A stretch of 28,946 nt of DNA from Burkholderiaceae bacterium (GCA_034933385.1 JAYFNP010000095.1:1-28946), one strand, 5' to 3'. Shown: positions 272 to 28,928, counted from the stretch's first letter. The notes: generated by a model from the letters alone, not told the origin. A program made the numbers and translations.

Positions 272-348
272 GGGGTATGTATGAAAACTCATAAATTTAT
301 ACAATACGATTTTATATATTTATACTATACACATACCTAGTATATTTT
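272..348 (+). repeat. Conserved ~75-bp intergenic element, copy D (degenerate)
   Basis: GGGGTATG-N4-AAAA ... ACTATAC-N9-GTATATTTT. The right arm is at offset +67 (others +64/+65) and the central GCCAGAT/GCGG blocks are replaced by AT-rich sequence. Confidence 0.6.
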
Positions 349-431
349 TAATTAAACCACCGGCAATAACGCTGTTAGGATCATTTCAGTCATGTTTGAT
401 GTATTTCTTGATGAAAAAATTACACTAAAAA

Positions 432-992
432 ATGGCTAACAGGCTTTCGAAAATCGTTACACGTACCGGTGATGACGGCACGACTGGTATCTGCGATAAC
501 CAAAGAATTGGCAAGGACGGTTTGCGCATACACACCATCGGAGAGGTGGACGAATTGAATTCGATGATAGGTTTGCTTTGCAGCGAACCATTACCGGAAC
601 TGTTGCATAAGGAAATGCAGGCCATACAGCATGATTTGTTTGATCTTGGGGGGGAATTGTCTATGCCAAACCAGACGGTACTGGATGACCGTCATGTTGC
701 AAGGCTGGACGAACTACTACAGAAATACAATGCAGACCTGCCAGCGTTAAAGGAATTCATTTTGCCTGGTGGTTCGCGCCCTGCTTCGCTAGCGCATGTC
801 TGTCGCGCAGTCTGCCGCCGGGCGGAACGTGCCGTGGTCAAACTAGCGCAAGCAGAACCGGTCAATCCGCGTGCAGTGCAATACCTGAACCGCTTGTCGG
901 ATCTGTTTTTCGTGGTGGCGCGTGAACTGAACCGGCAAGCAGAAAAAGAAGAGAAATACTGGGAAAAGTTGCGGCAACAACTGTACAGTTAA
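432..992 (+). CDS. pduO: PduO-type ATP:cob(I)alamin adenosyltransferase
   Basis: N-terminal KIVTRTGDDGTTG ATP-binding motif, GEVDELNS, FILPGG, RAVCRRAER and YLNRLSDLFFV are all typical of the PduO/MMAB family. Confidence 0.92.
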   Translation: MANRLSKIVTRTGDDGTTGICDNQRIGKDGLRIHTIGEVDELNSMIGLLCSEPLPELLHKEMQAIQHDLFDLGGELSMPNQTVLDDRHVARLDELLQKYNADLPALKEFILPGGSRPASLAHVCRAVCRRAERAVVKLAQAEPVNPRAVQYLNRLSDLFFVVARELNRQAEKEEKYWEKLRQQLYS

Positions 993-1019
993 AAAATGGC
1001 GCCATCGGCGCCATTTTTT
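991..1019. terminator. Bidirectional intrinsic terminator between pduO and folE2
   Basis: Perfect hairpin AAAAAATGGCGCC-ATC-GGCGCCATTTTTT giving U-tracts on both strands, between convergent stop codons. Confidence 0.88.
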
Positions 1020-1033
1020 ATCCTGGTCGAGCA

Positions 1034-1927
1034 TCAGCTCCGTTTGTCATTTTCAATCATCGCATACGCTGAATGATTGTGAATCGATTCGAAATTCTCG
1101 GCTTCCAGCGTGTATGCCAACACCCGATCATCGGCGTTTAACATGCCGGCAACATCACGTACCAGGTCTTCGACGAATTTTGGATTGTCGTATGCGCGTT
1201 CAGTGACGAATTTTTCGTCCGGTCGTTTTAAAAGGCCAAACAATTCGCACGATGCCTGCGCTTCAATCTTGGCGATCAGTTCATCGAATGGGAAACTGCC
1301 GGCCAGCACGGTATCAACCTTGATGTGCGAACGCTGGTTATGTGCGCCATAAGCAGCGATTTCCTTCGAACACGGGCACAGGCTGGTTACCGGCACCAGC
1401 ACTTGCTGGGCGATCTCCAGCGAACCATCGTCGCGAATTTCTGCGGTCAGGCCGACTTCATAATCCATCAGGCTTTGAACGCCAGATACCGGCGCAAATT
1501 TTTTAATGAAATAGGGAAAGGAAACTTCTATCCGTCCGCTTTTTACCTCAAGCATTTGAACCATGCTGCGCAGCATCTCGTCAATAACGCTGACATCCAG
1601 CGGCGTCGAATCAGGTTCGACCAGATCTTCCAGCAACGCAATGAAACGCGACATATGCGTGCCCTTCTTGTTTTCAGGCAATTGCACGGTCATGTTCCAG
1701 GTGCCAATAGTGGCTTGCACACCACTTGGCGTTTTCAGGCGGACAGGATAACGCACGCCTTTGACGCCAACACGCTGGATGGCTATATGGCGGGAGTCCG
1801 ATGTATTTTGCACGTCCGGAATACTGGGTTTGGCAGATGTCACGATAGTTTTTGCCTTAATCGGGTCTCGCTGGGCTTTTGCCGTGCTGTCATCATAGTC
1901 GGTAATGGTACGGTCGCGGGAGTTCAT
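1034..1927 (-). CDS. folE2: GTP cyclohydrolase IB (FolE2)
   Basis: [43 protein letters not shown] and [10 protein letters not shown] motifs. The start is uncertain: ATG at 1927 was chosen over the TTG at 1978 in the track. Confidence 0.92.
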
Positions 1928-1974
1928 GTGCCTGTCAGTATGGTCGCAAATCCTGTCATGCGGTTTTTCAGGAT

Positions 1975-3840
1975 TCAATTATTGACGACCAGTTTTGGTC
2001 CGTCATTCAAAAAACGCTGCCGGATGGCTGTCGCAATGCCGCTGGCGTCCAGTCCGCACATAGCCAGCAGTTGTGTCACATCGCCATGGTCAATGAACCG
2101 GTCAGGCAATCCAAGCTGCAAAAGGGGTTTCTCAATGCCCGCCTCCGCCAGCACTTCCGCCACTGCCGAACCGGCACCACCCATGATGCAACCCTCCTCG
2201 ACGGTTACCAGAGCGTCATGGCTCAATGCCAGTTGGAGTACAAGCTCTTTATCCAGCGGCTTGACGAAGCGCATGTTGGCCACGGTTGCATCCAGCGTTT
2301 CCGCCGCACCAAGCGCAGGAGCGACCATCGTTCCAAAGGCAAAAATCACGACTCCACGGCCAGTGCGGCGAATTTCGCCCTTGCCAATCGGAATGGTATC
2401 CAGATCGCGCTCGACCGCAGCACCGATGCCGGCGCCACGCGGATAACGCACCGAAGCGGGCCCATTATAGTGGAATGCGGTCGAAAGCATCCGGCGACAC
2501 TCGTTTTCATCCGAGGCCGCCATGACGACCATATTGGGTATGCAACGCATGAACGCCATATCGTAGCTGCCGGCATGCGTTGCGCCGTCGGCGCCAACCA
2601 GACCGGAGCGATCGAGCGCAAAGGTGACATCCAGGTTTTGCAATGCAACGTCGTGGATCAATTGGTCATAGGCGCGTTGCAGGAACGTCGAATAAATAGC
2701 CACCACCGGTTTCATGCCTTCGCAGGCGAGACCGGCAGCAAAGGTGACTGCATGCTGTTCGGCAATGCCGACATCGTAATAACGGTCCGGATACTGCTGT
2801 TCGAATTCAACCAGGCCGGAACCTTCACGCATTGCCGGCGTAATGCCTATCAGGCGTTCATCCTGAGCGGCCATGTCGCAAAGCCAGTCGCCAAACACAC
2901 GGGTATAGGTCAATTTTTTGCTGACGGACGGCAGGATGCCCTCGGCCGGACTGAACTTGCCGAGGCCGTGATACAGGATCGGGTCGGCTTCGGCCAATTT
3001 GTAGCCCTGCCCTTTCTTGGTGACCACGTGCAGGAATACCGGCCCCTTGATTTTGCGGATGTTCTGCATGATCGGGATCAGCGCGTTCAAATCGTGACCA
3101 TCGATCGGGCCAAAATACTTGAAACCGAATTCCTCAAATACCGTTGCCGGTGCAATCACCATTTTCGCCTGAGTTTCCAGACGTTTGGCGATGTCGGCCA
3201 CCGGCTTCGGCAGCACGGTTTTGGCGACATTTTTGGCAGCAGCGTAAAACTTGCCGGACATCAGGCGTGAGAAATAGCGGTTGAGCGCACCGACCGGCGG
3301 TGAAATCGACATGTCGTTATCGTTCAGTACCACCAGCAAGTTGATGTCGTCATAAACGCCGGCGTTGTTCAATGCTTCGAAAGCCATGCCGCCGGTAATC
3401 GCACCGTCGCCAATGACTGCGATCGAATGGCGATCTTCGCCTTTGCTCCTGGCAGCCAGCGCCATGCCGAGCGCGGCCGATATCGATGTCGATGAATGGG
3501 CGGTGCCGAATGCGTCGTATTCGCTTTCATCGCGCTTGGGAAAGCCGGACATGCCGCCGATCTGGCGCAAGGTGCGCATCTTCTCGCGACGACCAGTCAG
3601 AATCTTGTGCGGATAGGTTTGATGCCCGACATCCCACAGCAGCCGATCCTCAGGGGTATTGAACACATAATGCAGTGCCACCGTCAGCTCGATCACCCCG
3701 AGGTTGGACGACAAATGTCCACCAGTGCGGGATACCGAGTTCAGCACAAAATCGCGCAATTCATCGGTCAACTGCGCCAACTCGAGTCGCGTCAATTGAC
3801 GCAGATCGGCCGGGCTGTCGATGTCATTCAGCAAACTCAT
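1975..3840 (-). CDS. dxs: 1-deoxy-D-xylulose-5-phosphate synthase
   Basis: From ATG at 3840 ([14 protein letters not shown]): [57 protein letters not shown]. Confidence 0.96.
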
Positions 3841-3844
3841 ATAT

Positions 3845-4738
3845 TCATGCCTTACGGCGTACCACCAGATCGGCAATCTGATGCAAGCGCTCCGCCTTGC
3901 TGCCGAATGAAACCAGTGCGGCATGCGCGTATGCGCACAATTTGTCCACCAGCTGGCGGGAGGGTTCCAGACCGAGGATTGACACATAGGTTGGCTTGCC
4001 ATCGGTCGCATCCTTGCCAGCCGTCTTGCCGAGTGTTGTCGAATCTGCGGTCGCATCCAGAATGTCGTCGATTATCTGGAAAGCCAAACCAATTGCGTTT
4101 GCATACGTTTCCAGCGCGGCGTCTTCGTCTGCACTGAGTGTTTTGCCGCACAATGCGCCCAAAAAAACTGCTGCACGCAACAACGCGCCGGTTTTCAGCC
4201 GGTGCATCTGTTCCAGTTCCGCCAGCGACAGCGATTTGCCGACACTGGCCAGATCAATTGCCTGACCGCCGCACATGCCCGCGGAACCGGCTGCTTTCGC
4301 CAATAGCCGCACCATCGCCAGCGTACGGGTTGCATCGCCATTGCCTTCTGACAAGACCGAAAAGGCCTGCGTCTGCAGCGCATCCCCGACCAGCAGTGCG
4401 GTAGCTTCGTCATACTGCACGTGGACCGTCGGTTTGCCGCGCCGCAGCACGTCATCGTCCATGCACGGCATGTCATCATGCACCAGTGAATAGACGTGAA
4501 TCATTTCAACCGCAGTGGCGGCACGCGCCAGTAATTCCGGATCGGCTTCTGACAAGGCACCAGCAGCAAATACCAGCAACGGGCGCACCCGCTTGCCGCC
4601 CCCCAGTGCGGTATAGCGCATCGCCTGATGCAATCTGGTCGGCCTTTGCTCTGCCGGCGGCAAAAAAACCGACAGCGCGTCTTCGACAGCACGCTGGTTC
4701 GACTGCATCCAATGATCGAAGCTTGGTGTCATAGTCAC
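3845..4738 (-). CDS. ispA: Farnesyl diphosphate synthase / geranyltranstransferase
   Basis: [27 protein letters not shown] (FARM), [14 protein letters not shown] (SARM), TLGKTAGKD. The GTG start overlaps the xseB TGA. Confidence 0.95.
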
Positions 4739-6300: not shown

Positions 6301-6308
6301 CTCGGGAT

Positions 6309-6382
6309 TCCGAGGAGCGTTGCGACACGTCATCGATGACGTTGCCAGGCTCGGATTTGTTTTTTTATGCAACGGCGCTCAC
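6309..6382 (+). ncRNA. SAH riboswitch aptamer
   Basis: tccGAGGAGCGTTGCGAC...P2 palindrome ACGTCATCGATGACGT...CCAGGCTCGGA...CAACGGCGCTCAC matches the SAH riboswitch consensus (P1 plus GAGCG/CGCTC pseudoknot), directly upstream of ahcY. Confidence 0.92.
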
Positions 6383-6420
6383 GTAACTTTTTTCAGATTG
6401 ACAACGAAAGGAGAAGCGTG

Positions 6421-7827
6421 ATGACAACTGCACGCAAAGACGACTACCAGATTGCCGACATCGCCCTGGCCGAATGGGGCGACAAAGAAATCCGCATTGC
6501 CGAAACCGAAATGCCCGGCCTGATGGCGATTCGCGAAGAATTCGCCGCCAGCCAGCCGCTGAAGGGCGCGCGCATCACCGGTTCGCTGCACATGACCATC
6601 CAGACCGCGGTACTGATCCAGACGCTCGAAGCACTGGGTGCGCAGGTGCGCTGGGCGTCGTGCAACATTTTCTCGACCCAGGATCATGCCGCCGCTGCGG
6701 TGGCCGCCTGTGGCACGCCAGTGTTTGCCATCAAAGGCGAATCGCTGGACGATTACTGGGAATACACGCACCGCATTTTCGAATGGCCGGACGGTGGCTA
6801 CTCGAACATGATCCTCGATGACGGCGGCGATGCGACGCTGTTGCTGCACCTCGGCCAGCGCGCCGAGAAAGACAAATCGGTACTCGACAAGCCGAGTTGC
6901 GAAGAGGAAATTTGCCTGTTTAACGCGATCAAGCGTTACCTGGCGAAAGACGGCAGCTGGTATTCGAAACGGATCGGCGAGATCAAGGGCGTCACCGAAG
7001 AAACCACCACCGGCGTCCATCGCCTGTACCAGATGCACAAGGAAGGCAAGCTGGCATTCCCGGCGATTAACGTTAACGATTCAGTAACGAAATCGAAATT
7101 CGACAACCTGTACGGCTGCCGCGAATCGCTGGTTGACGGCATCAAGCGCGCGACCGACGTGATGATCGCCGGCAAGGTGGCGGTCGTCTGCGGTTACGGC
7201 GATGTCGGCAAGGGCTGTGCGCAAGCTTTGCGCGCGCTGTCCGCCCAGGTCTGGGTGACCGAAGTCGATCCGATTTGCGCGCTGCAAGCCGCAATGGAAG
7301 GTTACCGCGTGGTGACCATGGAATATGCTGCCGAACAGGCGGACATTTTCGTCACGGCGACCGGCAACTTCCATGTGATCGCGCACGATCATATGGTGAA
7401 GATGAAAGATCAGGCAATCGTCTGCAACATCGGCCACTTCGACAGCGAAATCGACGTTGCGTCAATGAAGCAGTACAAATGGGAAAACATCAAGCCGCAG
7501 GTTGACCACATCATCCTGCCGTCGGGCAACCGCATCATCCTGCTGGCCGAAGGCCGGCTGGTAAACCTTGGCTGCGGCACGGGTCATCCGTCGTACGTGA
7601 TGAGTTCGTCGTTCGCGAACCAGACGATTGCGCAGATCGAGCTGTACACCAACACCAAGTCCTATCCGGTTGGCGTGTACACGCTGCCCAAACATCTGGA
7701 CGAAAAGGTCGCGCGCCTGCAGCTGAAGAAACTGAATGCGCAGCTGACGACGCTGACGGCGGCACAGGCAGCGTACATCGGTGTGTCGGTCAATGGGCCG
7801 TACAAGCCGAACCATTACCGCTACTGA
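6421..7827 (+). CDS. ahcY: Adenosylhomocysteinase
   Basis: [78 protein letters not shown] at 6409-6413 supports ATG 6421. Confidence 0.97.
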
Positions 7828-9070: not shown

Positions 9071-9075
9071 TTCTA

Positions 9076-9149
9076 GGGTATAAGGAAAAATCAGCAAGTA
9101 TGGCCAGATAAAAAGCGGTGTGTAAAATATACTGCCTATAGTATATTTT
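9076..9149 (+). repeat. Conserved ~75-bp intergenic element, copy A
   Basis: GGGTATA at 9076, GCCAGAT at 9103 (+27), GCGG at 9115 (+39), perfect AAAATATAC-TGCCTATA-GTATATTTT at 9124-9149 (right arm +65). Confidence 0.88.
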
Positions 9150-9287: not shown

Positions 9288-11771
9288 ATGCACCGCCATT
9301 CCAGCCATGACTGGTTAAACCAACAGATTAACCCGACTCGCATCATGCTGGCGTATGCGGTTTTTGCTGCGTTGTGGATTATCGCGTCCGGCGCTTTTCT
9401 GACGTTTACCATCCAGGATCAATATCTTCAGGCCTGGATTGAAATCGGCAAGGGGCTGTTGTTTGTCGTGGTCACCAGCGTGCTGCTGAATCGGGTACTG
9501 ACCTGGCATCAGACACGCATCAAGCGCCTGACGCATCTGTATGCCGCATTAAGCCAGTGCAACCAGGCGATTGTGCATTGCGTCAGCGAACAAGAGCTTT
9601 TCCCCAAAATATGTCAAGCGGCCGTTTCCCACGATGGCATAAGAATGGCGTGGATTGGGATGGTCGATCAGGCCAGCGGCCAGGTTCGCCCAGCCGCTTC
9701 GTGTGGCCAGGGAGAGGAATACCTGCGCGAAGTCCGGATCACCACCAATCTGGCTGAACCCTGGGGCCGCGGGCCGGTTGGCACGGCGGTCAATGAAAAC
9801 CGGCCGGTATGGTGCCAGGATTTCAAAAGCGAACCGATGCTGACGCCGTGGCACGAGCAAGGACGGCAGTATGGTTTTGGCGCGAGTGCGGTTTTGCCGC
9901 TGCACAGGGGCGGCCTGCCGGTCGGCGTATTCTGTCTCTATGCCGGCAGGACGCATGCATTCGATTCGACGGCGCATCATTTGCTGACGGAAATGGCGCA
10001 AGACATCAGCTTTGCGCTGGACCGGTTTGAACAGGAAGAAGCGCACAAACGGATCGAACAGCAGGCGCGCGGCACACAATTACTGATGCAGCATTTTCTG
10101 GACAACATGCCGGGCGCGGTTTACATCAAAGACAGCGGATTGCGCGTGCTGCTGGCAAATCGCGGCTTTCAGACTTTGTTCGGCCTCGACCCGGCGGAGA
10201 TGATCGGCAAAACCAACCGCGAAATTTTTTCGGACGACCTTGGCGCGAAAATCAGCCAGGATGACATGCGCGTGCTGGCTTCCGGCAAGGCGGAAACCGT
10301 GTTCGAGGAATATCAGGGCAGGCGGTTCGAATCGACCAAGTTCGTGATCGAAGACGAGGCTGGCGGCCAGCTGCTGGGCGGCATCACGCTCGACGTCACC
10401 CAGCGCCACTTGCTGATGGCGCGTCAGCAAGCGCTACTCGAGCTGAATGAACTGGGCGCCCAGTTTCCGGAAAAGGATTTTCTGAACCATGGGCTGGGGA
10501 TCGCCCAGAAATTGACAGTCAGCGGGGTTTCTTTTTTACGTTTCATCAGTGATGAACCGAAAACCGATGAACTGGTTACCTGGTCGCAGAATGCCGGCGA
10601 AATTTGCGGCCTGGCTGATTATCCGATAACCGAGACAGGTGCTTGGGCGGAGTGTCTGCGGGAAAAAAGGACGGTCGTCATCAATAATTCTGGCGAGCAC
10701 CTGCAAACAAACGGATTGCCGGACAGCGGTACCTTGCCGGCGCGGCTGGTGCTGGTGCCAGTGATCGAAGAAGGTTCGGTGCGGATGATTCTGGGTGCCG
10801 GCCACAAGGAATTTGACTATGACGAGGCCGACGTCATCACTTTGCAATTGATCGGCAACGATTTGTGGCGGGTCGCGCGCCGCAACCGGGTCGAGGCGGC
10901 GATGCAGCAGCAATTGGCCGAGTTGAAAGGGCTGAACCAGCAGCTGGAAGAAACGCACAACCAGCTGGTGCAATCGGAAAAAATGGCGGCCATCGGGCAA
11001 CTGTCTGCCGGTATCGCGCATGAAATCAATAATCCGATCAGTTTCATCCAGTCCAATTTCAGCTCGCTGTCCGGCTACCTGGATGACTTGCTGGCGATCG
11101 ATGCCGCGTATTCGGAAATCGAGCGCAAACATGGCGCCCAGTTGCCGCAAGCATTCGAACAGGTGCAGCAGATAAAAAATTCGGTCGGACACGATTTCAT
11201 CGTTGGCGATTTGCGCCAGCTGATTGAGGAATCGCGCGAAGGAATGGAGCGGGTCAGAAAGATCGTTCAGGATCTGCGGAATTTCTCGCGGGTAGGCGAA
11301 ACCGGCTGGCAGTGGGCCGATTTGCATCAGGGCATCAACAGTACGATGAATATCGTGCGCAGTGTGATTCGGGAAGAGGTCGAGCTGGTGTGCGAGTTTG
11401 GCGAACTGCCGCTGGTGCGCTGTCTGCCGGCACAACTGAATCAGGTATTCCTGAACCTGCTGGTGAATGGCGCGCAAGCGATCGCCGGAGCGGGACGGGT
11501 GATGGTGCGCACCGGTTGCGAGGGCGACCGGGTCTGGGTCGAAATCGTTGACAGCGGCAGTGGCATTGCGCCGGAAAACATGAAACGCCTGTTCGAACCG
11601 TTTTTCACCACCAAGCCGGTCGGTCAGGGGACCGGACTCGGGCTATCGCTATCCTGGAGTATCGTCCAACGCCACGGCGGAAAAATCGAAGTTGATTCCA
11701 ATTCTGGCCAGGGAACGGTTTTCCGGGTTATCCTTCCGGTCGATTCGCAAACCGTTCCTGAAATTAACTAA
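9288..11771 (+). CDS. Sensor histidine kinase (2 TM - GAF - PAS - GAF-like - HisKA - HATPase_c)
   Basis: Two N-terminal TM helices; GAF (CQAAV..RMAWIG); PAS (FLDNMPGAVYIKD..ANRGF); H-box LVQSEKMAAIGQLSAGIAHEINNP; N box QVFLNLLVNGAQA; G1 DSGSGI; F box LFEPFFTTK; G2 GTGLGLS. Confidence 0.9.
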   Translation: MHRHSSHDWLNQQINPTRIMLAYAVFAALWIIASGAFLTFTIQDQYLQAWIEIGKGLLFVVVTSVLLNRVLTWHQTRIKRLTHLYAALSQCNQAIVHCVSEQELFPKICQAAVSHDGIRMAWIGMVDQASGQVRPAASCGQGEEYLREVRITTNLAEPWGRGPVGTAVNENRPVWCQDFKSEPMLTPWHEQGRQYGFGASAVLPLHRGGLPVGVFCLYAGRTHAFDSTAHHLLTEMAQDISFALDRFEQEEAHKRIEQQARGTQLLMQHFLDNMPGAVYIKDSGLRVLLANRGFQTLFGLDPAEMIGKTNREIFSDDLGAKISQDDMRVLASGKAETVFEEYQGRRFESTKFVIEDEAGGQLLGGITLDVTQRHLLMARQQALLELNELGAQFPEKDFLNHGLGIAQKLTVSGVSFLRFISDEPKTDELVTWSQNAGEICGLADYPITETGAWAECLREKRTVVINNSGEHLQTNGLPDSGTLPARLVLVPVIEEGSVRMILGAGHKEFDYDEADVITLQLIGNDLWRVARRNRVEAAMQQQLAELKGLNQQLEETHNQLVQSEKMAAIGQLSAGIAHEINNPISFIQSNFSSLSGYLDDLLAIDAAYSEIERKHGAQLPQAFEQVQQIKNSVGHDFIVGDLRQLIEESREGMERVRKIVQDLRNFSRVGETGWQWADLHQGINSTMNIVRSVIREEVELVCEFGELPLVRCLPAQLNQVFLNLLVNGAQAIAGAGRVMVRTGCEGDRVWVEIVDSGSGIAPENMKRLFEPFFTTKPVGQGTGLGLSLSWSIVQRHGGKIEVDSNSGQGTVFRVILPVDSQTVPEIN

Positions 11772-11792
11772 GCCAGTACATCAGCGACCCAG

Positions 11793-14267
11793 ATGAAGAC
11801 CCCCCACGACCGTTTCTCCATTCTCGACAAACGGGCTTTTGTGCTGCTGTCGCTCGACCTGGAATTCAAGATTTGCGCGATCAGTTTCGCCGGACTGCAC
11901 TGCCTCGGTTATGAAACGCAGCAACAGCTGCTTGGCCAGCCGCTGCAGGCGCTGGTTCCGAACGACCACTGGGACAAGGCCAGACTGGAAACGGCGGTTG
12001 AGCGTCTGAAACGGGATCGCGAACCGGCGTTGCTGGAATTCGATCTGTTGCATCGCAATGGCCAGCGCTTGCCGATGAGCTGGTGCCTCGACAGTCCTGC
12101 CGATCAAGATGATCCGTCATCGCCGTTGTTGCTGTTCGGCTTCGATACCACGACGCTCCGGCATAGCCAGCAAGCAGTCGCGCTGTTTCAAAGCGTGGCC
12201 GAGAATTACAGCGGCAGCATCCTGATTACCGACGCGCAGTCGCGCATTTTGTATGCGAATCCGGCGGCGCAGCGCATCATGGGCTATTCATACGAAGAAT
12301 TGTTTGGCCAGAAGTCGTCGCAGTTCCGGTCGGGCGAGACGCCGGATACGGGTTACCGGCAACTGACGGAAGCGATCAAGAACCGCGAAATATGGAAAGG
12401 TGAATTCATCAACCGCCGCAAGGATGGCGAACTGTACGTCGAGAGCAAGACAATTGCACCCATCAACGGGCCGAGCGGCGAAGTGGAATACTATTTTTCG
12501 ATTGGCGAAGACATTTCGCAGCGGCAGGAATACGAACAAAAGATCGAACGGCTGCTGATGTACGATCAACAGACTGGCTTGCCGAACCGCACTGCGTTCA
12601 TGCGCGAACTGGCGGCTGCGATGGAATCGGCCAGTTTGGCCGGTCAAGGATTGGCCGTGCTGCATGTGGACTTCGACGACTTCAAAAAAACCAATACCGC
12701 TTTTGGCAATGACGCGTCCGATCAGGTGCTGGCGGAAACGGCGGTGCGCATCAAGGAAATCCTGCGGGAAACCGATGTGGCGGCGCGCATCGCCGGCGAT
12801 GAATTTGCGGTGCTGCTCGGTTCGCGCCAGACTGGTGTCGAGGCCGACAGCTTGAACATTGCGGCGCGCCTGCTGGCGGCCATCCGCAGGCCCTATACCT
12901 TCACCGACCATAGCATTTCAATCACCGCTTCGATCGGGATCGCTTCCTTCCCGGAGTGTGGCGACAGCGCCCAGGATTTGATGACCAACGCGATGAGCGC
13001 GACGCTGCGGGCAAAACGCGGCGGCGGCAACGATTTGCGTCAGTTCGAGACAACGATGGCTGAGGATGAAAACGGGCGGCGCGAATTGCTGCAAGCCATC
13101 GAGCACGGCGAAATGGTGTTGCATTTCCAGCCGCAAGTCAGCCTGTTTTCTGGCAGCATCATTGGGGCCGAGGCGTTGATTCGCTGGAACCATCCGGTGC
13201 GCGGCCTGGTGTTTCCGGGCGAATTCATCCATATCGCTGAAGAAAGCAATTTCATCGTCGTGCTGGGCGAATGGGTGATCAACGAGGCGTGCCGCCAAAT
13301 ACGTGCCTGGCTGGATGCCGGTCTGCCGCCGGTCAAGGTGGCGGTCAATCTGGCTGCGCGCCACTTCCGCAAGACCAGCTTGCCGGCCTGCGTCGCTCAG
13401 GCGCTGGCGGCCTGGAAACTGGAGCCGCGTTTCCTCGAAATCGAGATCACCGAATACGCGCTGATGCAGGATATCGCCGCGACCATCCGCAATCTGGCGC
13501 AATTGAAGGAACTGGGGGTACGCATTTCGCTCGACGATTTCGGTACCGGCTATTCGTCGATGGCGTATCTGTCGCGTTTCCCGATCGATGTGGTCAAGAT
13601 CGACCAGTCGTTCATCAGCGACATTACCACCAATCCGGCCAATGCGGCGATCGCCCAGGCGACCATCGCGATGTCACACAAGCTTGGCAAGCTGGTGCTG
13701 GCGGAAGGCCTTGAAACGCTGGAACAGCTGACTTACCTGCGGCGTTCCGAGTGCGACGAAATGCAAGGCTATTATTTTTCCAAACCGGTGCCGGCCGACG
13801 AAATGGCCGCGATGCTGCAGCAGGACCGTCGCGCTTCGCTGGCGCTGCAAAGCGATCAACGGGTACGCGATACCATCTTGCTGGTCGACGATGAAGCCAG
13901 CATCCTGTCGGCGCTGAAGCGGACGTTGCGGCGTGAAGGCTACACCATCCTGACGGCGGAAAACGCCGCCGAGGGCTTCGCGCTGCTGGCCAAGCATCCG
14001 GTAAAGCTGATCATCAGCGACCAGCACATAAACGAAATGACCGGCACGCAATTTCTGTCGCAAGCCAGGATCATGTATCCGGAAACGGTGCGCATTGTGC
14101 TGTCCGGCTTTTCCGAAATTGCGACCGTGACCGATGCGATCAACAAGGGCGCGGCCTACCGCTTCCTGACCAAGCCGTGGAACGACGAGCAACTCAAGGA
14201 CGAAATCCGCGGCGCGTTGCGCCATTGGCGCGAGCTGTATGCCAGAGATGGTGACAACGCCCAGTAA
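11793..14267 (+). CDS. PAS-PAS-GGDEF(AGDEF)-EAL-REC c-di-GMP phosphodiesterase-type protein
   Basis: Two PAS domains (second ending in WKGEFINRRKDGELY); RETD I-site then AGDEF; EAL, EITE, DDFGTGYSS, KID, EGLE, QGY; C-terminal receiver (LVDDE, IISD, LSG, KPW). Confidence 0.9.
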   Translation: MKTPHDRFSILDKRAFVLLSLDLEFKICAISFAGLHCLGYETQQQLLGQPLQALVPNDHWDKARLETAVERLKRDREPALLEFDLLHRNGQRLPMSWCLDSPADQDDPSSPLLLFGFDTTTLRHSQQAVALFQSVAENYSGSILITDAQSRILYANPAAQRIMGYSYEELFGQKSSQFRSGETPDTGYRQLTEAIKNREIWKGEFINRRKDGELYVESKTIAPINGPSGEVEYYFSIGEDISQRQEYEQKIERLLMYDQQTGLPNRTAFMRELAAAMESASLAGQGLAVLHVDFDDFKKTNTAFGNDASDQVLAETAVRIKEILRETDVAARIAGDEFAVLLGSRQTGVEADSLNIAARLLAAIRRPYTFTDHSISITASIGIASFPECGDSAQDLMTNAMSATLRAKRGGGNDLRQFETTMAEDENGRRELLQAIEHGEMVLHFQPQVSLFSGSIIGAEALIRWNHPVRGLVFPGEFIHIAEESNFIVVLGEWVINEACRQIRAWLDAGLPPVKVAVNLAARHFRKTSLPACVAQALAAWKLEPRFLEIEITEYALMQDIAATIRNLAQLKELGVRISLDDFGTGYSSMAYLSRFPIDVVKIDQSFISDITTNPANAAIAQATIAMSHKLGKLVLAEGLETLEQLTYLRRSECDEMQGYYFSKPVPADEMAAMLQQDRRASLALQSDQRVRDTILLVDDEASILSALKRTLRREGYTILTAENAAEGFALLAKHPVKLIISDQHINEMTGTQFLSQARIMYPETVRIVLSGFSEIATVTDAINKGAAYRFLTKPWNDEQLKDEIRGALRHWRELYARDGDNAQ

Positions 14268-14281
14268 TGACGGATTTCTCC

Positions 14282-14355
14282 GGGGTATAGTTCAAAATAT
14301 ACCTTTACCGCCAGATGTTCTGCGGCAGTTTCAATATACATCCACCAGTATATTT
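14282..14355 (+). repeat. Conserved ~75-bp intergenic element, copy B
   Basis: GGGTATA at 14283, GCCAGAT at 14310 (+27), GCGG at 14322 (+39), AATATAC-ATCCACCA-GTATATT with right arm at 14348 (+65). Has an extra exact AAAATATAC half-site at 14294-14302. Confidence 0.88.
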
Positions 14356-14371
14356 CCCAGTGCGAAAACGG

Positions 14372-14929
14372 TCACAGCCGTTCGGTGACGATGTGATCGA
14401 GCGCGATGTCGCGCGGGCCGGGTGTGAATTCGATTGCCTGACAGGAGTATGCGATACCCAGCGTCAGCGGTCGCGGCGATACCGCCAGCGTGCGGTCGTA
14501 AAATCCGCCGCCATAGCCGAGGCGGAAATTCCCGGCATTGAACCCGACGCACGGCACTAGCAGCGCTTGCGGCAAGGCAACCAATCGTTTTTCGGCTGGC
14601 GTCGGCACGCCGAACGCATCGTTGATCATCGAATCGCCTGGTTTCCAGGCAGCGAATTCCAGCGGGCGGGCCTTGCCGGCGACCACCGGCAGTGCCAGCG
14701 CGATGCCAGCCGCTGCCAGACGTTCGTACAGAGCCAGCAAATCCGGCTCGCCGCGGATCGGCCAGAATACGCCGAGCGTTTCGACCGGCTGCGCCTGCAA
14801 GCGCTGCTCGAGTTGTGCTGCAATCGCGGCATCCCATTCGCTTTTCTGCGACGGGCCAATCGCATGCCGCGCGTTCAGCAGCATCCGCCGCAACGCGCTC
14901 TTTTCAATCATGCTTGGTGGTAAACTCAT
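14372..14929 (-). CDS. ygfA: 5-formyltetrahydrofolate cyclo-ligase
   Basis: KSALRR, FWPIRGEPDL, LVPCVGF, RLGYGGGFYDRTL and D..LDHIVTE motifs. Confidence 0.92.
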   Translation of the reverse strand: MSLPPSMIEKSALRRMLLNARHAIGPSQKSEWDAAIAAQLEQRLQAQPVETLGVFWPIRGEPDLLALYERLAAAGIALALPVVAGKARPLEFAAWKPGDSMINDAFGVPTPAEKRLVALPQALLVPCVGFNAGNFRLGYGGGFYDRTLAVSPRPLTLGIAYSCQAIEFTPGPRDIALDHIVTERL

Positions 14930-14948
14930 AGCTCAACTCTATTCCATT

Positions 14949-16883
14949 ATGAGAAGTACGTTGTTACATTGGCCGAAAACTGTCGGGCTGGCGCTGTGTG
15001 CCGCCGCCATCGTGGCCCTTCCTCAGGTTCAGCTCGCGCAGGCGTCTGAACTGAGTGGCGCCGATCAAACCTTCATTGCGTTGCGCGAGGCGGCGCGCCG
15101 GGATCGGGCAGACAAGGCGGCCGAACTGGCCGACCGCCTGCGCGATTATCCCATACCGTCGTATGTCGAATATTACCGCTTGAAGACGCGCGTCAAGGAT
15201 TTGCCCGAGGCAGACATCCGCTCGTTCCTGACGCGTCATGCCGGCAGCGCGATTGCTGACCGGTTGCGCAACGACTGGCTGCTGGAACTGGGGCGGCAGC
15301 GTGAGTGGGCGACGTTCGACCAGCAATATCCGCAATTCGTGCTGCAAGACGACGTGCAGGTCAAATGCTATGCGCTGCTGTCGGGCGCAGCGAAAGGCAA
15401 AAATGTTGCCGGCGAAGCGCGGGCTTCGCTGACCCAGCCGAAAAAATACGGCGAGGCTTGCATCGCGCTGATCACCACGCTGGCGCAAAACGGGCAATTC
15501 AGCGCCGACGATGTCTGGGCACAAATCCGGCTGGCCGGCGAGGCTGGCACTGGCAGCGTTGCCGAGAAACTGGCGCCGGCGGCCGATGCCGATAAAAAAC
15601 AGGTGGCGCGCGCGGTCGATCTGCCGCTGCTGACGCTGGCGCGCGGGCCGCAAACCAGCCGTGCCGCCCATGAAACCTTTGTTATCGCGCTCGGCCGGCT
15701 GGCGCGCAAAGATCACGAACAGGCGGCCGCTTACGTGCTGAAGCATGAGGCCGGCAAATTGACACCGCAGGAACAGGCACAGGCCTGGGCGCAGATCGCG
15801 CAGCGGGCAACTTTCAGCCTGGCGCCGGAAGCGATCACTTACTGGCAAAAGGCGGGCAATGCGCCGTTGTCCGAAGAGGGAGCGCAATGGAAAGTGCGCG
15901 CCGCGTTGCGTGTCGGCGACTGGAAGATGGTCAAAGACGCCATCAACGCGATGCCGCCATCGCTGCAACGCGATCCGGCCTGGGTTTACTGGAAGGCGCG
16001 AGCGCTGCAAGCCGAAGGCCAGCGCGAACCGGCGCAGCAACTGTTCCAGTCGATTGCCGCCGTGCCGGAATTCTATGGCCAGCTGGCGCTGGAAGAACTG
16101 GGGCAGAAAATAAGCATTCCGCCACGGGCGCCGGCCGCGACCAGCGCAGAAATCGCGTCGATGGCGGCGAATGCCGGCTTCCAGCGCGCCCGCAAGATGT
16201 ACGACCTGGGCTTGCGCTTCGAAGGCGGGCGCGAATGGAACTGGGAATTGCGCAAGATGAACGACCGCCAGTTGCTGGCGGCGGCCGAGTATGCGCGGCA
16301 AATCGGCTTGCTCGACCGGATGGTGAACACTTCCAGTCGCACCAGGCGTGAAGCCGACTACACCCAGCGTTTCCCGACGCCGTATCGCGAGCTGATGCAG
16401 GCCGAGGCGAACCAGCAAGGCATCGATCTGGCCTGGGCGTACGGCTTGATCCGTCAGGAGTCGCGCTTCGTGATGAATGCCCGTTCGCATGTCGGCGCCG
16501 CTGGCCTGATGCAATTGATGCCGGCGACCGCCAGGCACGTCGCGAAGAAGATCGGCCTGGCCGGCTTTAGCCAGGAACAGGTGAACGATCCGGCGACCAA
16601 CATCAAGCTTGGCACCAGTTACCTGAAGATGGTGCTCGACCAGCTCGACGGTTCGCAGGCGATGGCTTCGGCGGCTTATAACGCCGGCCCGAAGCGGCCG
16701 CGTGCCTGGCGCAAGACGCTGGCCCAGCCGGTTGAAGGCGCGATTTTCGCGGAAACGATTCCGTTTGCCGAGACGCGCGGCTACGTGAAGAACGTGCTGT
16801 CGAACGCCACCTATTACGCCGCGCTGTTCGAAGGCCGGCCGCAGTCGCTGAAGGCGCGGTTGGGCACGGTCACGGCCAACTAG
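14949..16883 (+). CDS. slt: Soluble lytic murein transglycosylase (Slt70-like)
   Basis: Signal peptide from ATG 14949 (MRSTLL...AQA), long helical region, and C-terminal SLT domain with LIRQESRF, GAAGLMQLMP, AAYNAGP and ETRGYVKNV. Confidence 0.92.
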   Translation: MRSTLLHWPKTVGLALCAAAIVALPQVQLAQASELSGADQTFIALREAARRDRADKAAELADRLRDYPIPSYVEYYRLKTRVKDLPEADIRSFLTRHAGSAIADRLRNDWLLELGRQREWATFDQQYPQFVLQDDVQVKCYALLSGAAKGKNVAGEARASLTQPKKYGEACIALITTLAQNGQFSADDVWAQIRLAGEAGTGSVAEKLAPAADADKKQVARAVDLPLLTLARGPQTSRAAHETFVIALGRLARKDHEQAAAYVLKHEAGKLTPQEQAQAWAQIAQRATFSLAPEAITYWQKAGNAPLSEEGAQWKVRAALRVGDWKMVKDAINAMPPSLQRDPAWVYWKARALQAEGQREPAQQLFQSIAAVPEFYGQLALEELGQKISIPPRAPAATSAEIASMAANAGFQRARKMYDLGLRFEGGREWNWELRKMNDRQLLAAAEYARQIGLLDRMVNTSSRTRREADYTQRFPTPYRELMQAEANQQGIDLAWAYGLIRQESRFVMNARSHVGAAGLMQLMPATARHVAKKIGLAGFSQEQVNDPATNIKLGTSYLKMVLDQLDGSQAMASAAYNAGPKRPRAWRKTLAQPVEGAIFAETIPFAETRGYVKNVLSNATYYAALFEGRPQSLKARLGTVTAN

Positions 16884-16899: not shown

Positions 16900-16974
16900 C
16901 AGAAATACACTGCACAGTATTTTTGCATGGCCGCAGAATGCGTGGCCAGGCAGCATATTTTCAGCATATACTCC
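16900..16974 (-). repeat. Conserved ~75-bp intergenic element, copy E
   Basis: Minus strand: GAGTATA from 16973, AAAA +12, GCCA +27, GCGG +39, AAAAATAC-TGTGCAGT-GTATTTCT with right arm at +65. Spacing is identical to copies A, B and C. Confidence 0.82.
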
Positions 16975-18501: not shown

Positions 18502-18551
18502 CCCGCTGACAGGTCACTTTGTTGTCATTATTCAAGGATGAAGGAGATGTG

Positions 18552-19199
18552 ATGACCTGGAAAGACGCCGTCATTCGAGCATTAACCAGAATGTCACTGC
18601 GGCATCACAAGAATTTTTTTCGCCGAACGGATATTCTTCGAGAGGAACTTGAAAATATCAAACAGGATACCGGCTCAGTTGGGGCGACACCGGAACAAAC
18701 ATTAAGCAGAGTACTTCAGAATTTGCGCGATGAAGGGTATCTGGATTTTGATGGAAACGGCGGTTATACATTATTGGATAGCGTTTTTACCCCAACATCT
18801 TCAGATATAGCTGAACAGTATCCCGTTCCCGAACGGTCACCAACGACGATTCACAGAATTATCCGGGATTCTAAAATTGTTTCAGAACTAAAAAGGTTGT
18901 ACTCCTTCAGGTGCCAGATTTGCGAAGTCAGGCTCGAACTGCCATCCGGATTTTACTGTGAAGCCCATCATTTGAAGCCTTTGGGCGCTGCGCATAATGG
19001 GCCCGATGTCAAAAGCAACCTTATCATCGTGTGTCCGAACCACCATGTGATGCTGGATTATGGGTCGATAGAATTGAACGAATCCATTCTGAAGCTGGAT
19101 AAGCACTTGATCGATCAAGAGTTTTACGATTATCACAATAAGAACATCTTTCGGGCTGAGCACATGACAGACATCGCCTTGCCGCCGCGCGTGAATTGA
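18552..19199 (+). CDS. Winged-helix (DpnI-C-like) - HNH endonuclease, putative type IV modification-dependent restriction enzyme
   Basis: AAGGAG RBS at 18541-18546. C-terminal HNH: RD...LY..RCQIC...EAHH..P...NLIIVCPNHH. N-terminal TWKDAV...TLSRVLQNLRDEGYLDFDGNGGYTL resembles the DpnI winged-helix C-terminus. Visibly AT-rich. Confidence 0.8.
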   Translation: MTWKDAVIRALTRMSLRHHKNFFRRTDILREELENIKQDTGSVGATPEQTLSRVLQNLRDEGYLDFDGNGGYTLLDSVFTPTSSDIAEQYPVPERSPTTIHRIIRDSKIVSELKRLYSFRCQICEVRLELPSGFYCEAHHLKPLGAAHNGPDVKSNLIIVCPNHHVMLDYGSIELNESILKLDKHLIDQEFYDYHNKNIFRAEHMTDIALPPRVN

Positions 19200-19299: not shown

Positions 19300-19980
19300 A
19301 TGACACGCATGGACGACAAGCCCAGACCGGACGACAAGCCCATCGTTTTCATCAAGGAATTGACCGAGCGCGACCGGCCGTACCTGCTGAACCACTTCAA
19401 GACGCTGGATGCGAACGACCGTTTCCTGCGTTTCGGCAGCGTAGTCACCGACGAGGCGATCGCGCGTTACGTCGATGGCATCGATTTCACCCAGGACACG
19501 ATGTTCGGCGTCTATGAAAGCACCAACAACATGGTCGGCGTCGGCCATCTGTCGATTGCCCGACCGGAATCGCTGCCGGTGCTGGAAGGCTGCGCCCGGC
19601 GGGAAAGCATCGCCGAGTTCGGCGTGTCGGTGCTGGCGGCGGCGCGGCGGATGAATGTCGGCACCCGGTTATTCGAGCGGGCGGTGGTGCATTGCCGCAA
19701 CAAGAATGTCGATACGATGTACATCCATTGTCTGGCGTCGAACAAGCCGATGCTGTGCATTGCGCACAAGGCCGGCATGGAAATCCACCGTGATCACGGC
19801 GAGGTGGATGGCTACCTGAAACTGCCCGATCCGAACCGCGCAACGCTGCTGCACGAGGCGGTCGAGGAACGGGCGGCAACGCTGAACTACGCATTGAATG
19901 GCAAGTTCAAGGTGTCGATCGACTGGTTCCGCAACCTGTTCCACGCGAAATTGAACAGCCATCCGGAAAATAAGGACTAA
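19300..19980 (+). CDS. GNAT family N-acetyltransferase
   Basis: DRFLRFG, AEFGVSVLAAARRMNVGTRL (acetyl-CoA motif A-like), and C...NKPM..IAHKAGM. Confidence 0.85.
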   Translation: MTRMDDKPRPDDKPIVFIKELTERDRPYLLNHFKTLDANDRFLRFGSVVTDEAIARYVDGIDFTQDTMFGVYESTNNMVGVGHLSIARPESLPVLEGCARRESIAEFGVSVLAAARRMNVGTRLFERAVVHCRNKNVDTMYIHCLASNKPMLCIAHKAGMEIHRDHGEVDGYLKLPDPNRATLLHEAVEERAATLNYALNGKFKVSIDWFRNLFHAKLNSHPENKD

Positions 19981-20052
19981 TAAATACCTCTAGGAGTATT
20001 TATGGCGGGCCAGGAAAAACGCGGCCCAATCCCGGTTTTCCCGCTATACCCC
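19980..20052 (-). repeat. Conserved ~75-bp intergenic element, copy F
   Basis: Minus strand: GGGGTATA from 20052, AAAA +12, GGCC +25..28, TAAATAC-TCCTAGAG-GTATTTA with right arm at +64 (one base shorter than the consensus). Confidence 0.75.
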
Positions 20053-20529
20053 GGCAATAATGCGGTGCGGCAATTGCAGGATCGCTTCGGCGTTGGACGA
20101 CGAAAAGCAGCGGTCAGCCGCTTCGCGGTACGGCAGCCAGACATGGTGCAGGTGTTCGCGCGGCGCCAGCACCACCGGCACCGTGCGCGGCACCAGCAGG
20201 CCGAACACATGTTCGGTATTGCGCACCACGCCCGGCGCGTAGCGGTGGCGCCAGGTCGGGTAGATTTCGTAACTGTTGGTCAGTTGCCAGTCGTGCAGGT
20301 TGGCCAGCGGAACTTCGCTGCCGGTCGACGCACCGCGGGCGACAATGCGGATGCCGGTTTCTTCCTGCACTTCACGCTTGGCCGTTTCCGGCAGCGGTTC
20401 ATCCAGGCTGTTTCTTGAGCCGGTGACCGATTGCCAGAAGCCGGGCTTGTCGGCACGCTCAATCAGCAGCACCTCCAGCTCGACGGTGTGGATCACTACC
20501 AGGACCGATTCGGGGATTTTGTAGGCCAT
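20044..20529 (-). CDS. nudB: Dihydroneopterin triphosphate diphosphatase (Nudix)
   Basis: YKIPESVLVVIHT, WQSVTGS, Nudix box AKREVQEETGI, YAPGV..NTEHVF, SSSNAEAI; follows aspS as usual. Confidence 0.93.
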   Translation of the reverse strand: MAYKIPESVLVVIHTVELEVLLIERADKPGFWQSVTGSRNSLDEPLPETAKREVQEETGIRIVARGASTGSEVPLANLHDWQLTNSYEIYPTWRHRYAPGVVRNTEHVFGLLVPRTVPVVLAPREHLHHVWLPYREAADRCFSSSNAEAILQLPHRIIAGV

Positions 20530-26590: not shown

Positions 26591-26625
26591 GGTGAGTTCA
26601 GGTGTCGGAGCGGATGGGTAAAACA

Positions 26626-26655
26626 AAACCGCCCGCAATTTCTCGCGGGCGGTTT
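26626..26655 (-). terminator. Intrinsic terminator after the Tim44-domain gene
   Basis: AAACCGCCCGC-N8-GCGGGCGGTTT followed on the minus strand by TGTTTT. Confidence 0.8.
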
Positions 26656-26693
26656 CAAGTGTAACAGTTTGTCGGCGATTCGCCGATGCCTGG

Positions 26694-27635
26694 CTAGTTC
26701 ACCTGCTGAATGCCGGCCAGCACCCAGCCGCCCTTGCCGGTCAGCGGCCGGGTCAGGTTCCAGACTTCGTAAAACTCGGTCGCTGGCGCATCCGGTGATT
26801 CCTTGATCGTGCCGGAAAACTGGACACTGGCCATTTGTTCGCTGCCGATGTTTTCGATGCCGAGCAGCGCAGCATCCAGGGTGATCACATCGGTTACGTT
26901 TTGCGAGGCGCCGCGCTCCTGCATCTGCATTTTCAGTTCGGCATACATTTCCGGCGTGGTGTATTCGCGAATGTCGTAGATATCGGCCTTGTCCCATGAC
27001 GCTTGCAGGCGGATGAAATAGGTTTTCGCGCTGCGCAGGAAGGCCGGCACGTCGAAATCGGACGGTACGCCATACGGCATATAGGTTGCGGATGAAGCAG
27101 CCGCATCGGCCTGATAGGCGGCCGGCTGGGCTGCCTGTGACCCCAGGCCGGAACCGATTTCCGGTGTACTGCTACCGACCGATGGTGATGAATAGCCTGT
27201 CTGATAGCCGCTGGCATAAGCGTCTTGCCGGCCAGGTTCATCCTTTTTGCGCGTCAGCAGACGGAACACGAACATCAGCGCAAAACCGATCAGTGCCACC
27301 ATCAGAATCGTGCTGATGATGCTGGCAGCCGCGCCGCCCAGGCCGAAGTGCGACAGCAGCGCACCCAGGCCGAGGCCGAGCAAGGCACCGCCGAGGATGC
27401 CGCGCCACGGGCTAGGCGGTTTTACTGCAGGTGCGGCTGGAGCCGGTGTCTGCCCGGCGGTGGGTTGGGCTTGCTGGGCCGGCGCCGCCTGCTTTTGCAT
27501 CGGCGCCTGACGGGTTACGGTGGGCGATTGTTTGCCGAAAGAGCGGCCGCCGCCGAGTCGGGCAGCCTGTGCGTCGGTGGCAATCACCGACAGGCTGCTG
27601 GCGATCAACATCATGGCGATCAAGAATTTTTTCAT
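26694..27635 (-). CDS. Tim44 domain-containing protein
   Basis: Signal peptide, [10 protein letters not shown], Gly/Ala/Pro/Gln-rich linker, TM region, and C-terminal [15 protein letters not shown]...[24 protein letters not shown] supports ATG 27635. Confidence 0.9.
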
Positions 27636-27661
27636 GGTCACTCCCAATAGACTTGCGGGGT

Positions 27662-28396
27662 TTATGGTTTGATTCCGGTGTGAAGCGCTGCCACACCGGC
27701 GGTCAGATTGAAGTACTGGACGTACTCGAAGCCGGCATTATGCATCATTTCCTTCAGCGTCTCCTGATCCGGGTGCATGCGGATCGATTCAGCCAGATAA
27801 CGGTAACTGTCGGCATCGCCGGCAATCTGTTGTCCCAGCCAGGGTAAAACCGAAAACGAATAGTCGTCGTACATTTTTTGCAGCGGTTGCCAGACTTTCG
27901 AGAATTCCAGCACCAGAAGCTTGCCGCCGTGTTTCAGCACGCGCTGCATTTCGGCCAAAGCAATCTCTTTGTGCGTCATGTTGCGCAAGCCAAAGGCGAC
28001 GGTGACGCGGTCGAAGTAATTGTCGGCAAACGGCAGTTTCTCGGCGTCGCAAACCGAGATGGGGACGATCCGGCCGGCGTTCAACAGCCGGTCGCGCCCG
28101 ACCTTCAGCATCGATTCGTTGATGTCGGTCAGCCAGACCTGTCCGTTCGGGCCGGCCTGTTTGGCAAACGCTTTTGCCAGATCGCCGGTGCCGCCGGCAA
28201 TGTCCAGCACCCGGAATCCGGGGCGCACGCCGGCTTGCGAAATCGTGAATGCTTTCCAGATGCGGTGCAGGCCGGCCGACATCAGGTCGTTCATCAGGTC
28301 GTAATTGCCGGCGACCGAATCGAATACGCCAGCGACACGGCGGACTTTATCTTCTTCCGCTACGGTTTCGAAACCGAAATGGGTGGTGTTGCTCAT
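27662..28396 (-). CDS. ubiE: Ubiquinone/menaquinone C-methyltransferase
   Basis: [54 protein letters not shown]. Confidence 0.96.
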
Positions 28397-28827
28397 CGTT
28401 GGTCCAACTGTCTGATTATCGCGGCGCGCAGTGCCGGCAGCAGGCCGCGCCGCGCGCTCAAAGTGTCTGGTGGCGTGGTGCGTTGCGCCGCCGCCCAGAC
28501 CGGCGCCGGAAATTGCGCGTCGTCGGCAAAGCGCGGAATCACATGCCAGTGCAGGTGCGGCACGACATTGCCGAGCGTCGCCAGGTTGATCTTGTCCGGT
28601 TGCAGTGCCGCGCGCACCGCAGCTTCGACCTGCCAGACTGCCTCCATCAGTTCAGCGCGATCTGCCGGTGGCAGGTCGGTCATTTCCTGCACATGGGCTT
28701 TCCAGATCACGCGGCAAAAGCCGGGATGGGCCGGATCGTCGACCAGCACGACGCGCCAGCGGATGCTGTCGAACAGCAGTTCGCCCCCGGCCTGCCGGCA
28801 CAGTTCACACTCGTTTTGTTCCATCAT
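28393..28827 (-). CDS. HIT family protein
   Basis: [37 protein letters not shown] (HxHxH triad). Confidence 0.9.
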
Positions 28828-28853
28828 CGACCCTTGAAACTTCGTAAAATCAT

Positions 28854-28928
28854 GGGGTATATACTAAAAAATGTATCCATGGCCAGATATTCCGCGGCGA
28901 TTTTAAAATACATCCGCCAGTATATTTT
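28854..28928 (+). repeat. Conserved ~75-bp intergenic element, copy C
   Basis: GGGTATA at 28855, GCCAGAT at 28882 (+27), GCGG at 28894 (+39), AAAATAC-ATCCGCCA-GTATATTTT with right arm at 28920 (+65). Matches copy B at 41 of 49 positions over offsets 27-75, ungapped. Confidence 0.88.

Follow-up and report, generated by a model that had tools for sequence, protein, structure and literature searches.

A dispersed family of 75-bp intergenic elements at gene ends in an Oxalobacteraceae genome, and its possible role as protein-docking sites on DNA

The window and its repeated element

The window considered here, that is, the whole stretch of DNA that was analysed (28,946 nucleotides; Burkholderiaceae bacterium, GCA_034933385.1, JAYFNP010000095.1:1-28946), is contig C95 of a genome bin, G000, which comprises 1.91 Mb in 389 contigs, is 84% complete and derives from a groundwater metagenome. 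The bin is placed in the Oxalobacteraceae branch of the Burkholderiales, its AspRS is 87% identical to that of a Noviherbaspirillum-like metagenome-assembled genome, and genome sizes within its genus are 2.2-2.4 Mb. The gene content of the window is ordinary housekeeping, including folE2, dxs, ispA, ahcY, metF, a lytic transglycosylase gene (SLT), cca, aspS and ubiE/ubiB. Scattered between such genes are copies of a 75-bp element built of short conserved blocks at fixed distances, which a preliminary description of the window had recognised in six places and had taken for the footprint of a multi-site protein-DNA complex. The copies are as follows.

9075-9149, plus strand: copy B, full 75 bp, 55.5 bits; 5 bp past the metF stop and upstream of a GAF-PAS histidine kinase gene, in a tandem spacer
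14282-14356, plus strand: copy C, full 75 bp, 64.5 bits; takes up most of a 104-bp convergent spacer
16902-16974, minus strand: copy D, 73 bp (2-bp deletion in the N8 spacer), 56.3 bits; 19 bp past the SLT transglycosylase stop
19979-20052, minus strand: copy E, 74 bp, 41 bits; variant with a flipped middle block (GGCCGCG...CTGG type)
28854-28928, plus strand: copy F, the best-scoring copy of the genome, 75.5 bits; at the contig end, 5' of a HIT-domain gene (28393-28827, minus strand)
264-349, plus strand: copy A, 7.7 bits, E 0.11; missed by the refined profile

Copies B to F align without gaps or almost so (41-75.5 bits, E 4.5e-12 to 7.8e-23), and they share the blocks and the N8-spaced inverted repeat first noted for all six. 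Copy A retains GGGGTAT, the A run and a TATAC-N8-GTATATTTT repeat, but its GGCCAG/GCGGC block is gone. A sister species, G006, of which 384 kb containing 51 copies was available for comparison, has only a right-half remnant at the orthologous position. On account of its low score, its missing middle block and this remnant, copy A is a decaying relic. The gene contexts had been partly mislabelled (B and F as convergent, D as divergent, E as tandem): B and D lie in tandem spacers, with D antisense to both of its flanking genes; C is flanked by convergent genes, a PAS-GGDEF-EAL-REC gene (stop at 14267) and a 5-formyltetrahydrofolate (5-FTHF) cyclo-ligase gene (14372-14929, minus strand); and E spans an entire convergent spacer, overlapping both gene ends (GNAT, 19300-19980; NUDIX, 20044-20529). 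The identity of 57/77 given for copies B and C was also wrong, since these two share 45 of 75 positions and the pair at 74% is C and F.

A genome-wide family of conserved blocks

With a profile built from the six copies, a search of the genome at E<1e-4 gave about 200 matches, against none once the genome had been block-shuffled. The refined profile recovered 212 copies in G000, a density of about one per 9 kb; 193 of these project to a length of exactly 75 bp, so that the many genome-wide copies and the fixed internal spacing suspected from the window are both borne out, and the dispersed family is real and was understated. The copies are solitary and lie among housekeeping genes; the nearest pair is 564 bp apart, and spacings run from 1.5 to 9 kb (10th to 90th percentile). 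Public sequencing runs containing the sequence are DNA metagenomes from groundwater, wastewater and retting, and plasmids gave no match to the element. The family had been called possibly undescribed; literature searches found no description of a 75-bp family of this sort, although dispersed extragenic repeats such as REP (repetitive extragenic palindromic) and BIME (bacterial interspersed mosaic element) sequences are well known as a general kind.

The anatomy of the element was derived from 181 ungapped G000 copies, numbered from the first G. The core carries about 72 bits of information, which are held in discrete blocks, and the bases between the blocks are near random.

Positions -8 to -3: A/T patch
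Positions 1-7: GGGGTAT, 98-100% conserved at positions 2 and 4-7
Positions 14-16: AAA, 90-95% conserved
Positions 28-33: GGCCAG
Positions 37-38: TT
Positions 41-45: GcGGC
Positions 48-50: TTT
Positions 53-58: AAATAC
Positions 65-70: CAGTAT
Positions 72-75: TTTT

These blocks can be grouped into three modules, which are placed as follows in copy F.

28854-28869, plus strand: module I, GGGGTAT and AAA, preceded by the A/T patch
28881-28898, plus strand: module II, the pseudo-palindrome GCC-N11-GGC, positions 28-45 (GGCCAG..TT..GcGGC)
28901-28928, plus strand: module III, TTTaAAATAC-N8-CAGTATaTTTT, positions 48-75

Two correlated variants of module II exist, each the mirror image of the other at the outer positions; the correlation is inconsistent with base pairing. 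In module III, two AT-rich arms in inverted orientation enclose an 8-bp spacer that is GC-rich and variable, and no covariation was seen by which the stem would be extended. The word GTAT recurs in direct orientation at positions 4 and 67, a distance of 63 bp or six helical turns. The conserved spacing with variable filler that had drawn attention to the window copies holds as a property of DNA sequence blocks and not of RNA pairing.

In G000, AT content rises and falls every 10.3-10.9 bp in register with the element, over a stretch that runs from about -50 to +146, with an amplitude 8-14 standard deviations above the mean of a phase-randomised null. The phasing is just as strong where the positions belong to coding DNA at the 3' ends of neighbouring genes, and it recurs with the same period and phase in G006. 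Phasing of this kind is the mark of DNA that has intrinsic curvature or is wrapped around protein.

Placement at the ends of genes

Intergenic copies make up 197 of the 212, with median distances of 24 bp to gene 3' ends and 95 bp to gene 5' ends. Among spacers of at least 60 bp, the element occupies 55 of 112 convergent (49%), 91 of 425 tandem (21%) and 12 of 139 divergent ones (9%), a difference across spacer classes with a chi-square p of 1e-13. The orientation of copies within tandem spacers is 53:38 (p 0.14), and since this shows no preference, any action of the element would be independent of the direction of transcription. Canonical terminator-like hairpins, scored at -12 kcal/mol, follow 19% of genes with the element and 19% of those without it, and a terminator substitute was rejected on this ground; the element does not stand in for terminators, nor is it a promoter or an operator. 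Fourteen copies lie within 50 bp of a G000 contig end, where 4.3 would be expected (p 2e-4), and five of these are cut by the end; assemblies may break at copies through strain-level variation at the element.

Distribution and persistence

The distribution of the family was surveyed with a sequence-only covariance model in the seven genomes of the genus and in 151 sampled genomes of the bacterial family, representing 64 genera. Within the genus the element is present in three genomes (G000, G004 and G006); G001 and G003, both single-contig, and G005 (20 contigs) have no copies, and G002 has two weak, relic-like matches. Across the bacterial family there are 14 carriers among the 151 genomes, with G032-G034, G041 and G047 among them, in 8 of the 64 genera, and the other genera have variant versions in which the outer modules are kept around a GCC..TTC..GGC centre. 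The window loci give examples of this patchiness. At locus B, G006 and G004 have orthologous copies that point the same way, and G001 and G003 have none; locus D likewise has orthologous copies in G006 and G004 and empty sites in G001 and G003; and at both loci the element-free species have short, empty spacers. Neither locus is occupied in five carriers from other genera. Locus C in G006 has two tandem copies.

The comparison of G000 with its sister species speaks to how the copies are kept. When G006 copies with both flanks on one G000 contig are considered, 27 of 31 (87%) share their spacer with a G000 copy, and for 26 of these the orientation agrees as well. Over 21 orthologous pairs, identity is 91% at block positions, 37% at variable positions (29% in random pairs) and 27-33% in the flanks. 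Neutral DNA between the two species is saturated, with the blocks surviving at each locus. Within G000 the highest identity at variable positions, among 16,290 pairs of copies, is 69%; the genome has no recently copied members, and every copy is old. Recent copying therefore cannot explain the conservation of the blocks, and selection on the resident copies is required. The comparison indicates that copies are kept by purifying selection at orthologous sites.

The sister species presents a more recent episode. About 11 of 46 copies in G006 belong to a young subfamily with up to 91% identity at variable positions (for example those at C19:3732, C25:48604, C35:19028 and C7:1432), which has in common a 3' extension, AGCCTTACTGACC-N12-GGTCAGTTATTT, giving a unit of about 125 bp. 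Two insertions found only in G006 are of this subfamily, several members are second copies beside older ones, and at the loci of some members the G000 copy is old and looks unrelated, an indication of replacement of, or homing onto, existing sites. At G006:C1:56725-56799 the upstream open reading frame (ORF) takes its stop from the element, at the TAA within GGGGTATAA, and G000 has at this place no element and a different C-terminus; the element can in this way remodel gene ends. The patchy distribution and the young subfamily with its new insertions show that the family spread by mobility. Over long time scales it is mobile, and over shorter ones its copies are fixed and under selection.

Proposed protein-docking sites on double-stranded DNA

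The explanation that best accommodates these observations is that the copies are sequence-specific protein-docking sites on double-stranded DNA, similar to REP/BIME sequences in position and probably in role; a probability of about one half may be attached to it. The blocks without RNA pairing, the selection on them and the AT phasing together point, as the best-supported mechanism, to a multi-site protein-DNA complex that would assemble at gene ends on DNA that is bent or wrapped. The complex proposed in the preliminary description is in this sense the best reading of the blocks, their retention, their phasing and their placement. The core would be formed by three modules at invariant distances (GGGGTAT..AAA; GCC-N11-GGC; TTTAAAATAC-N8-CAGTATATTTT), and the surrounding 190 bp or so of phased DNA (period about 10.5-10.8 bp) would be bent or wrapped on the protein complex. 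The family would have spread in the past through a trans-acting mobility or homing process, recently still active in the sister species, and the old G000 copies are held by purifying selection at gene 3' ends, above all between convergent genes. The most likely role would be architectural or topological: the complex would mark or insulate the points at which transcription units end, one instance being a site favoured by gyrase or by a nucleoid protein at places where positive supercoils generated by transcription would accumulate.

The comparison is with the REP/BIME sequences of Enterobacteria and the REPINs of Pseudomonas. Like the present element they exist as hundreds of short extragenic copies after stop codons, especially between convergent genes and in either orientation, and they are lineage-specific with long vertical inheritance; they are bound by architectural proteins, and the BIME-2 repeats of Escherichia coli are strong gyrase sites (PMC6379681). 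In other respects the two kinds differ. REPs are imperfect palindromes of 20-40 nt with a GTAG-type head, usually arranged in clusters or inverted pairs, and the associated RAYT gene is flanked by REPs, whereas the element is 75 bp long, non-palindromic overall and solitary, with fixed blocks amid random filler. There is no palindromic unit with a tetranucleotide head, as only module III is inverted, with four invariant pairs, and no RAYT gene that co-occurs with the element and is flanked by it. High copy number outside genes, nearness to 3' ends and convergent enrichment are all found. The element is accordingly REP/BIME-like in placement and probable role, yet it lacks the palindromic unit and the RAYT association by which REPs are defined.

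The topological version, with gyrase as one candidate, is plausible. Gyrase sites such as Mu's strong gyrase site (SGS), the par locus of pSC101 and BIME-2 share with the element a long degenerate footprint in which AT/GC phasing of about 10.5-10.75 bp flanks a core, and like it they lie downstream of transcription units (PMC6379681). In E. coli the gyrase motif has a length of 130 bp and arms phased at 10.75 bp (PMC6379681); it is two-fold symmetric and weakly specific, whereas the element has about 190 bp of phased DNA and asymmetric blocks that are 99-100% invariant. GTAT/ATAC words occur in both and are differently arranged.

A number of observations weigh against protein-docking sites of this kind, and in particular against their topological version. 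The phased region of about 190 bp exceeds the 130-bp gyrase footprint, the arrangement of the core differs from the E. coli gyrase consensus, and a universal protein such as gyrase explains neither the 99-100% invariant blocks nor the patchy distribution. The AT profile has many equivalent two-fold centres and none that is unique, and the two-fold symmetry needed for gyrase was therefore set aside as uninformative. Part of the 3' phasing coincides with the 3' extension of the G006 subfamily and could be inherited, although this explains neither the 5' phasing nor that in coding DNA. The preference for gene 3' ends can arise simply from insertions being tolerated there, and the evidence for even spacing is weak, coming from one species (coefficient of variation 0.66 in G006 versus 0.85 for random eligible spacers, P 0.04). 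Finally, no binding protein was found among the candidates examined, which were HU/IHF, integrases and a Y1 transposase-like gene. An extra HU/IHF paralogue was rejected as the binder, because every genome of the genus, carrier or not, has three such genes. The Y1_Tnp gene occurs once in each of the seven genus genomes, including the element-free ones, and a limited search for a tyrosine recombinase or integrase specific to carriers found none.

In its most far-reaching form the proposal would be that some Oxalobacteraceae possess a dedicated chromosome-organising system, in which a protein with sequence specificity would dock on 200-400 selected 75-bp sites where transcription units end, and at each of them wrap about 190 bp of DNA; the complexes would act as fixed boundaries or sinks of supercoiling, a sequence-encoded insulator system derived from a domesticated mobile element. 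This extension is speculative, and on present evidence one would rather bet against it.

Dispersed extragenic repeats are common in bacteria, and whether they are functional is rarely clear. The comparative signal is here unusually clean: blocks are fixed at the same loci, the neighbouring neutral bases have turned over, and the helical phase is kept. The family could serve as a tractable model for sequence-encoded chromosome architecture and supercoil management, for the domestication of mobile repeats and for finding the reader protein, and its profile is of practical help in annotating intergenic DNA and the ends of genes within this Oxalobacteraceae clade.

Alternative explanations

The alternative that survives best, unlikely as it is when set beside docking sites, is an essentially selfish, non-autonomous mobile element of REP or MITE (miniature inverted-repeat transposable element) type, whose blocks would be the recognition sites of a mobilising enzyme and whose copies would persist by landing harmlessly and be refreshed through homing or gene conversion. 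The patchy distribution in the genus and the bacterial family is what such an element would produce, as are the insertions relative to the empty sites of G001 and G003, the lack of occupation of loci B and D in the five carriers from other genera, the young G006 subfamily with its 3' extension, private sites and second copies, and the G006 ORF that ends within the element. This view has difficulty with the G000 copies, whose blocks are about 90% kept in the absence of recent copying while their neutral neighbours are saturated, which implies selection on each copy, and with the 87% of sites that are stable between the two species and in the same orientation.

Nor is a parent element that carries such ends visible. 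The Correia elements (CREE) of Neisseria, and MITEs, are like the present family small, abundant intergenic elements (betaproteobacterial in the case of CREE) that can overlap gene ends, carry protein-binding sites, show signs of past insertion and fall into subfamilies. MITEs are characterised by terminal inverted repeats, target-site duplications and evenly spread divergence, whereas the divergence of the element is all-or-none by position. Its consensus has no terminal inverted repeats, four species-specific sites showed no target-site duplications, and no autonomous relative was seen. Solo left halves were absent and solo right halves were limited to one weak match each in G000 and in the 384 kb of G006; a MITE with a parent insertion sequence was rejected on these grounds, and the suggestion that the element might be a mobile end is contradicted by them. 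A RAYT/REP system was also rejected. The single-copy Y1_Tnp (IS200/RAYT-like, PF01797) ORF of G000, L143, encodes 269 amino acids at C210:9300-10110 on the minus strand; it is the sole gene of its kind, it does not track the element, and its flanks are unique rather than repeated, the nearest copy being about 800 bp off, on one side only. The integrase on G000 contig C275 is a common island integrase with no correlation with the element. Among these genes no recombinase or transposase could be assigned to the element. Mobility explains the family's origin, not its retention.

It is improbable, and at most a minor option, that the copies are site-specific recombination sites for the insertion or exchange of islands, with module III as a tyrosine-recombinase core and the upstream modules as accessory arms. 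The geometry of module III, 9-10-bp AT-rich inverted arms around an 8-bp variable spacer, resembles lox- and FRT-type cores, and tyrosine-recombinase sites in general (lox, FRT, dif/cer, lambda attP) share with the element AT-rich inverted arms of about 10 bp and an 8-bp spacer, additional sites at fixed helical distances, and wrapped DNA of about 200 bp, which for the element would be matched by the phased region; an intasome-like wrap would fit this 190-bp footprint. The element differs from such sites in its hundreds of copies, their differing spacers, their stable syntenic positions and the lack of a partner recombinase among the genes searched. In the window, direct copies B and C bracket a 5.2-kb island (9288-14267) that is missing between metF and ygfA/SLT in G001, G003 and G005, and the enrichment of copies near contig ends would suit exchange at the element. 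Against this, B resembles C no more closely than random copies resemble each other (11 of 32 variable positions, the genome-wide average), and half of the eligible spacers are occupied, so that a bracketing of this sort is expected by chance and may be nothing else; most sites are syntenic and stable, and only 36 of 778 contig ends are near a copy. Duplication of the element through insertion of the island was rejected, since B and C are not specially similar. The island consists of the GAF-PAS histidine kinase and PAS-GGDEF-EAL-REC genes, and a similar-sized insert is present in G006; in G001, G003 and G005 the SLT gene lies about 0.7 kb past metF, with room only for ygfA. The preliminary description had not recognised the element as an integron attC site, and it is not one: the consensus has no R''/L''...L'/R' boxes (RYYYAAC...GTTRRRY), and the copies are solitary among housekeeping genes rather than in co-oriented cassette arrays by intI.

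Action as RNA, whether as a 3'-untranslated-region element, a bidirectional terminator or an mRNA stabiliser as proposed for REP sequences, has a fainter chance still. Copies do stand immediately 3' of stop codons, module III does resemble an A-tract, a short hairpin and a T-tract, alike on both strands, and folding energies are slightly below those of shuffled sequences (-21.9 versus -17.8 kcal/mol). However, covariation was found nowhere: mutual information between columns showed adjacent-column effects and none at long range, alifold on 175 copies gave no consensus structure on either strand, the commonest helix appeared in only 35% of single-sequence folds, and the stem amounts to four conserved AT-rich pairs, next to which the Watson-Crick frequency equals expectation. 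The Rfam models gave no match to the element at gathering scores or at E<=1. With alifold, mutual information and Rfam all empty, an RNA element was rejected, and neither the orientation of copies relative to the upstream gene (53:38) nor the equal frequency of terminator-like hairpins favours one.

An ordinary promoter or operator of a large regulon is very improbable, for in spite of TATACT-like and TGGCCA-like hexamers on the reverse strand the copies adjoin gene 3' ends (median 24 bp) and are farther from 5' ends (median 95 bp), occupy no more than 9% of divergent spacers, where they are depleted, and lie in either orientation to the downstream gene, so that they are not regulon sites upstream of co-oriented genes.

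Other features of the window

Genes were called with a simple codon-usage caller trained on G000, which makes some errors and missed ygfA in the window. The long ORF at 14538-16883 is an overextended SLT gene in which homology begins near residue 133, and it is on the opposite strand, at 14372-14929, that the 5-FTHF cyclo-ligase (ygfA) is encoded. An HNH_2 endonuclease gene (18519-19199, plus strand) lies in a lower-GC islet between cca and the GNAT gene. No homologue was found in G001, G003, G006, G033 or G047, and the gene was rejected by the codon-usage caller, which fits a recent acquisition; the islet was dismissed as a mobiliser of the element because it is present only in G000. An SAH riboswitch (RF01057, 58.7 bits) is located at 6306-6387 on the plus strand, directly 5' of ahcY (S-adenosylhomocysteine hydrolase, 6367-7827), and ahcY is followed downstream by a gene for a holin-family membrane protein and then by metF.

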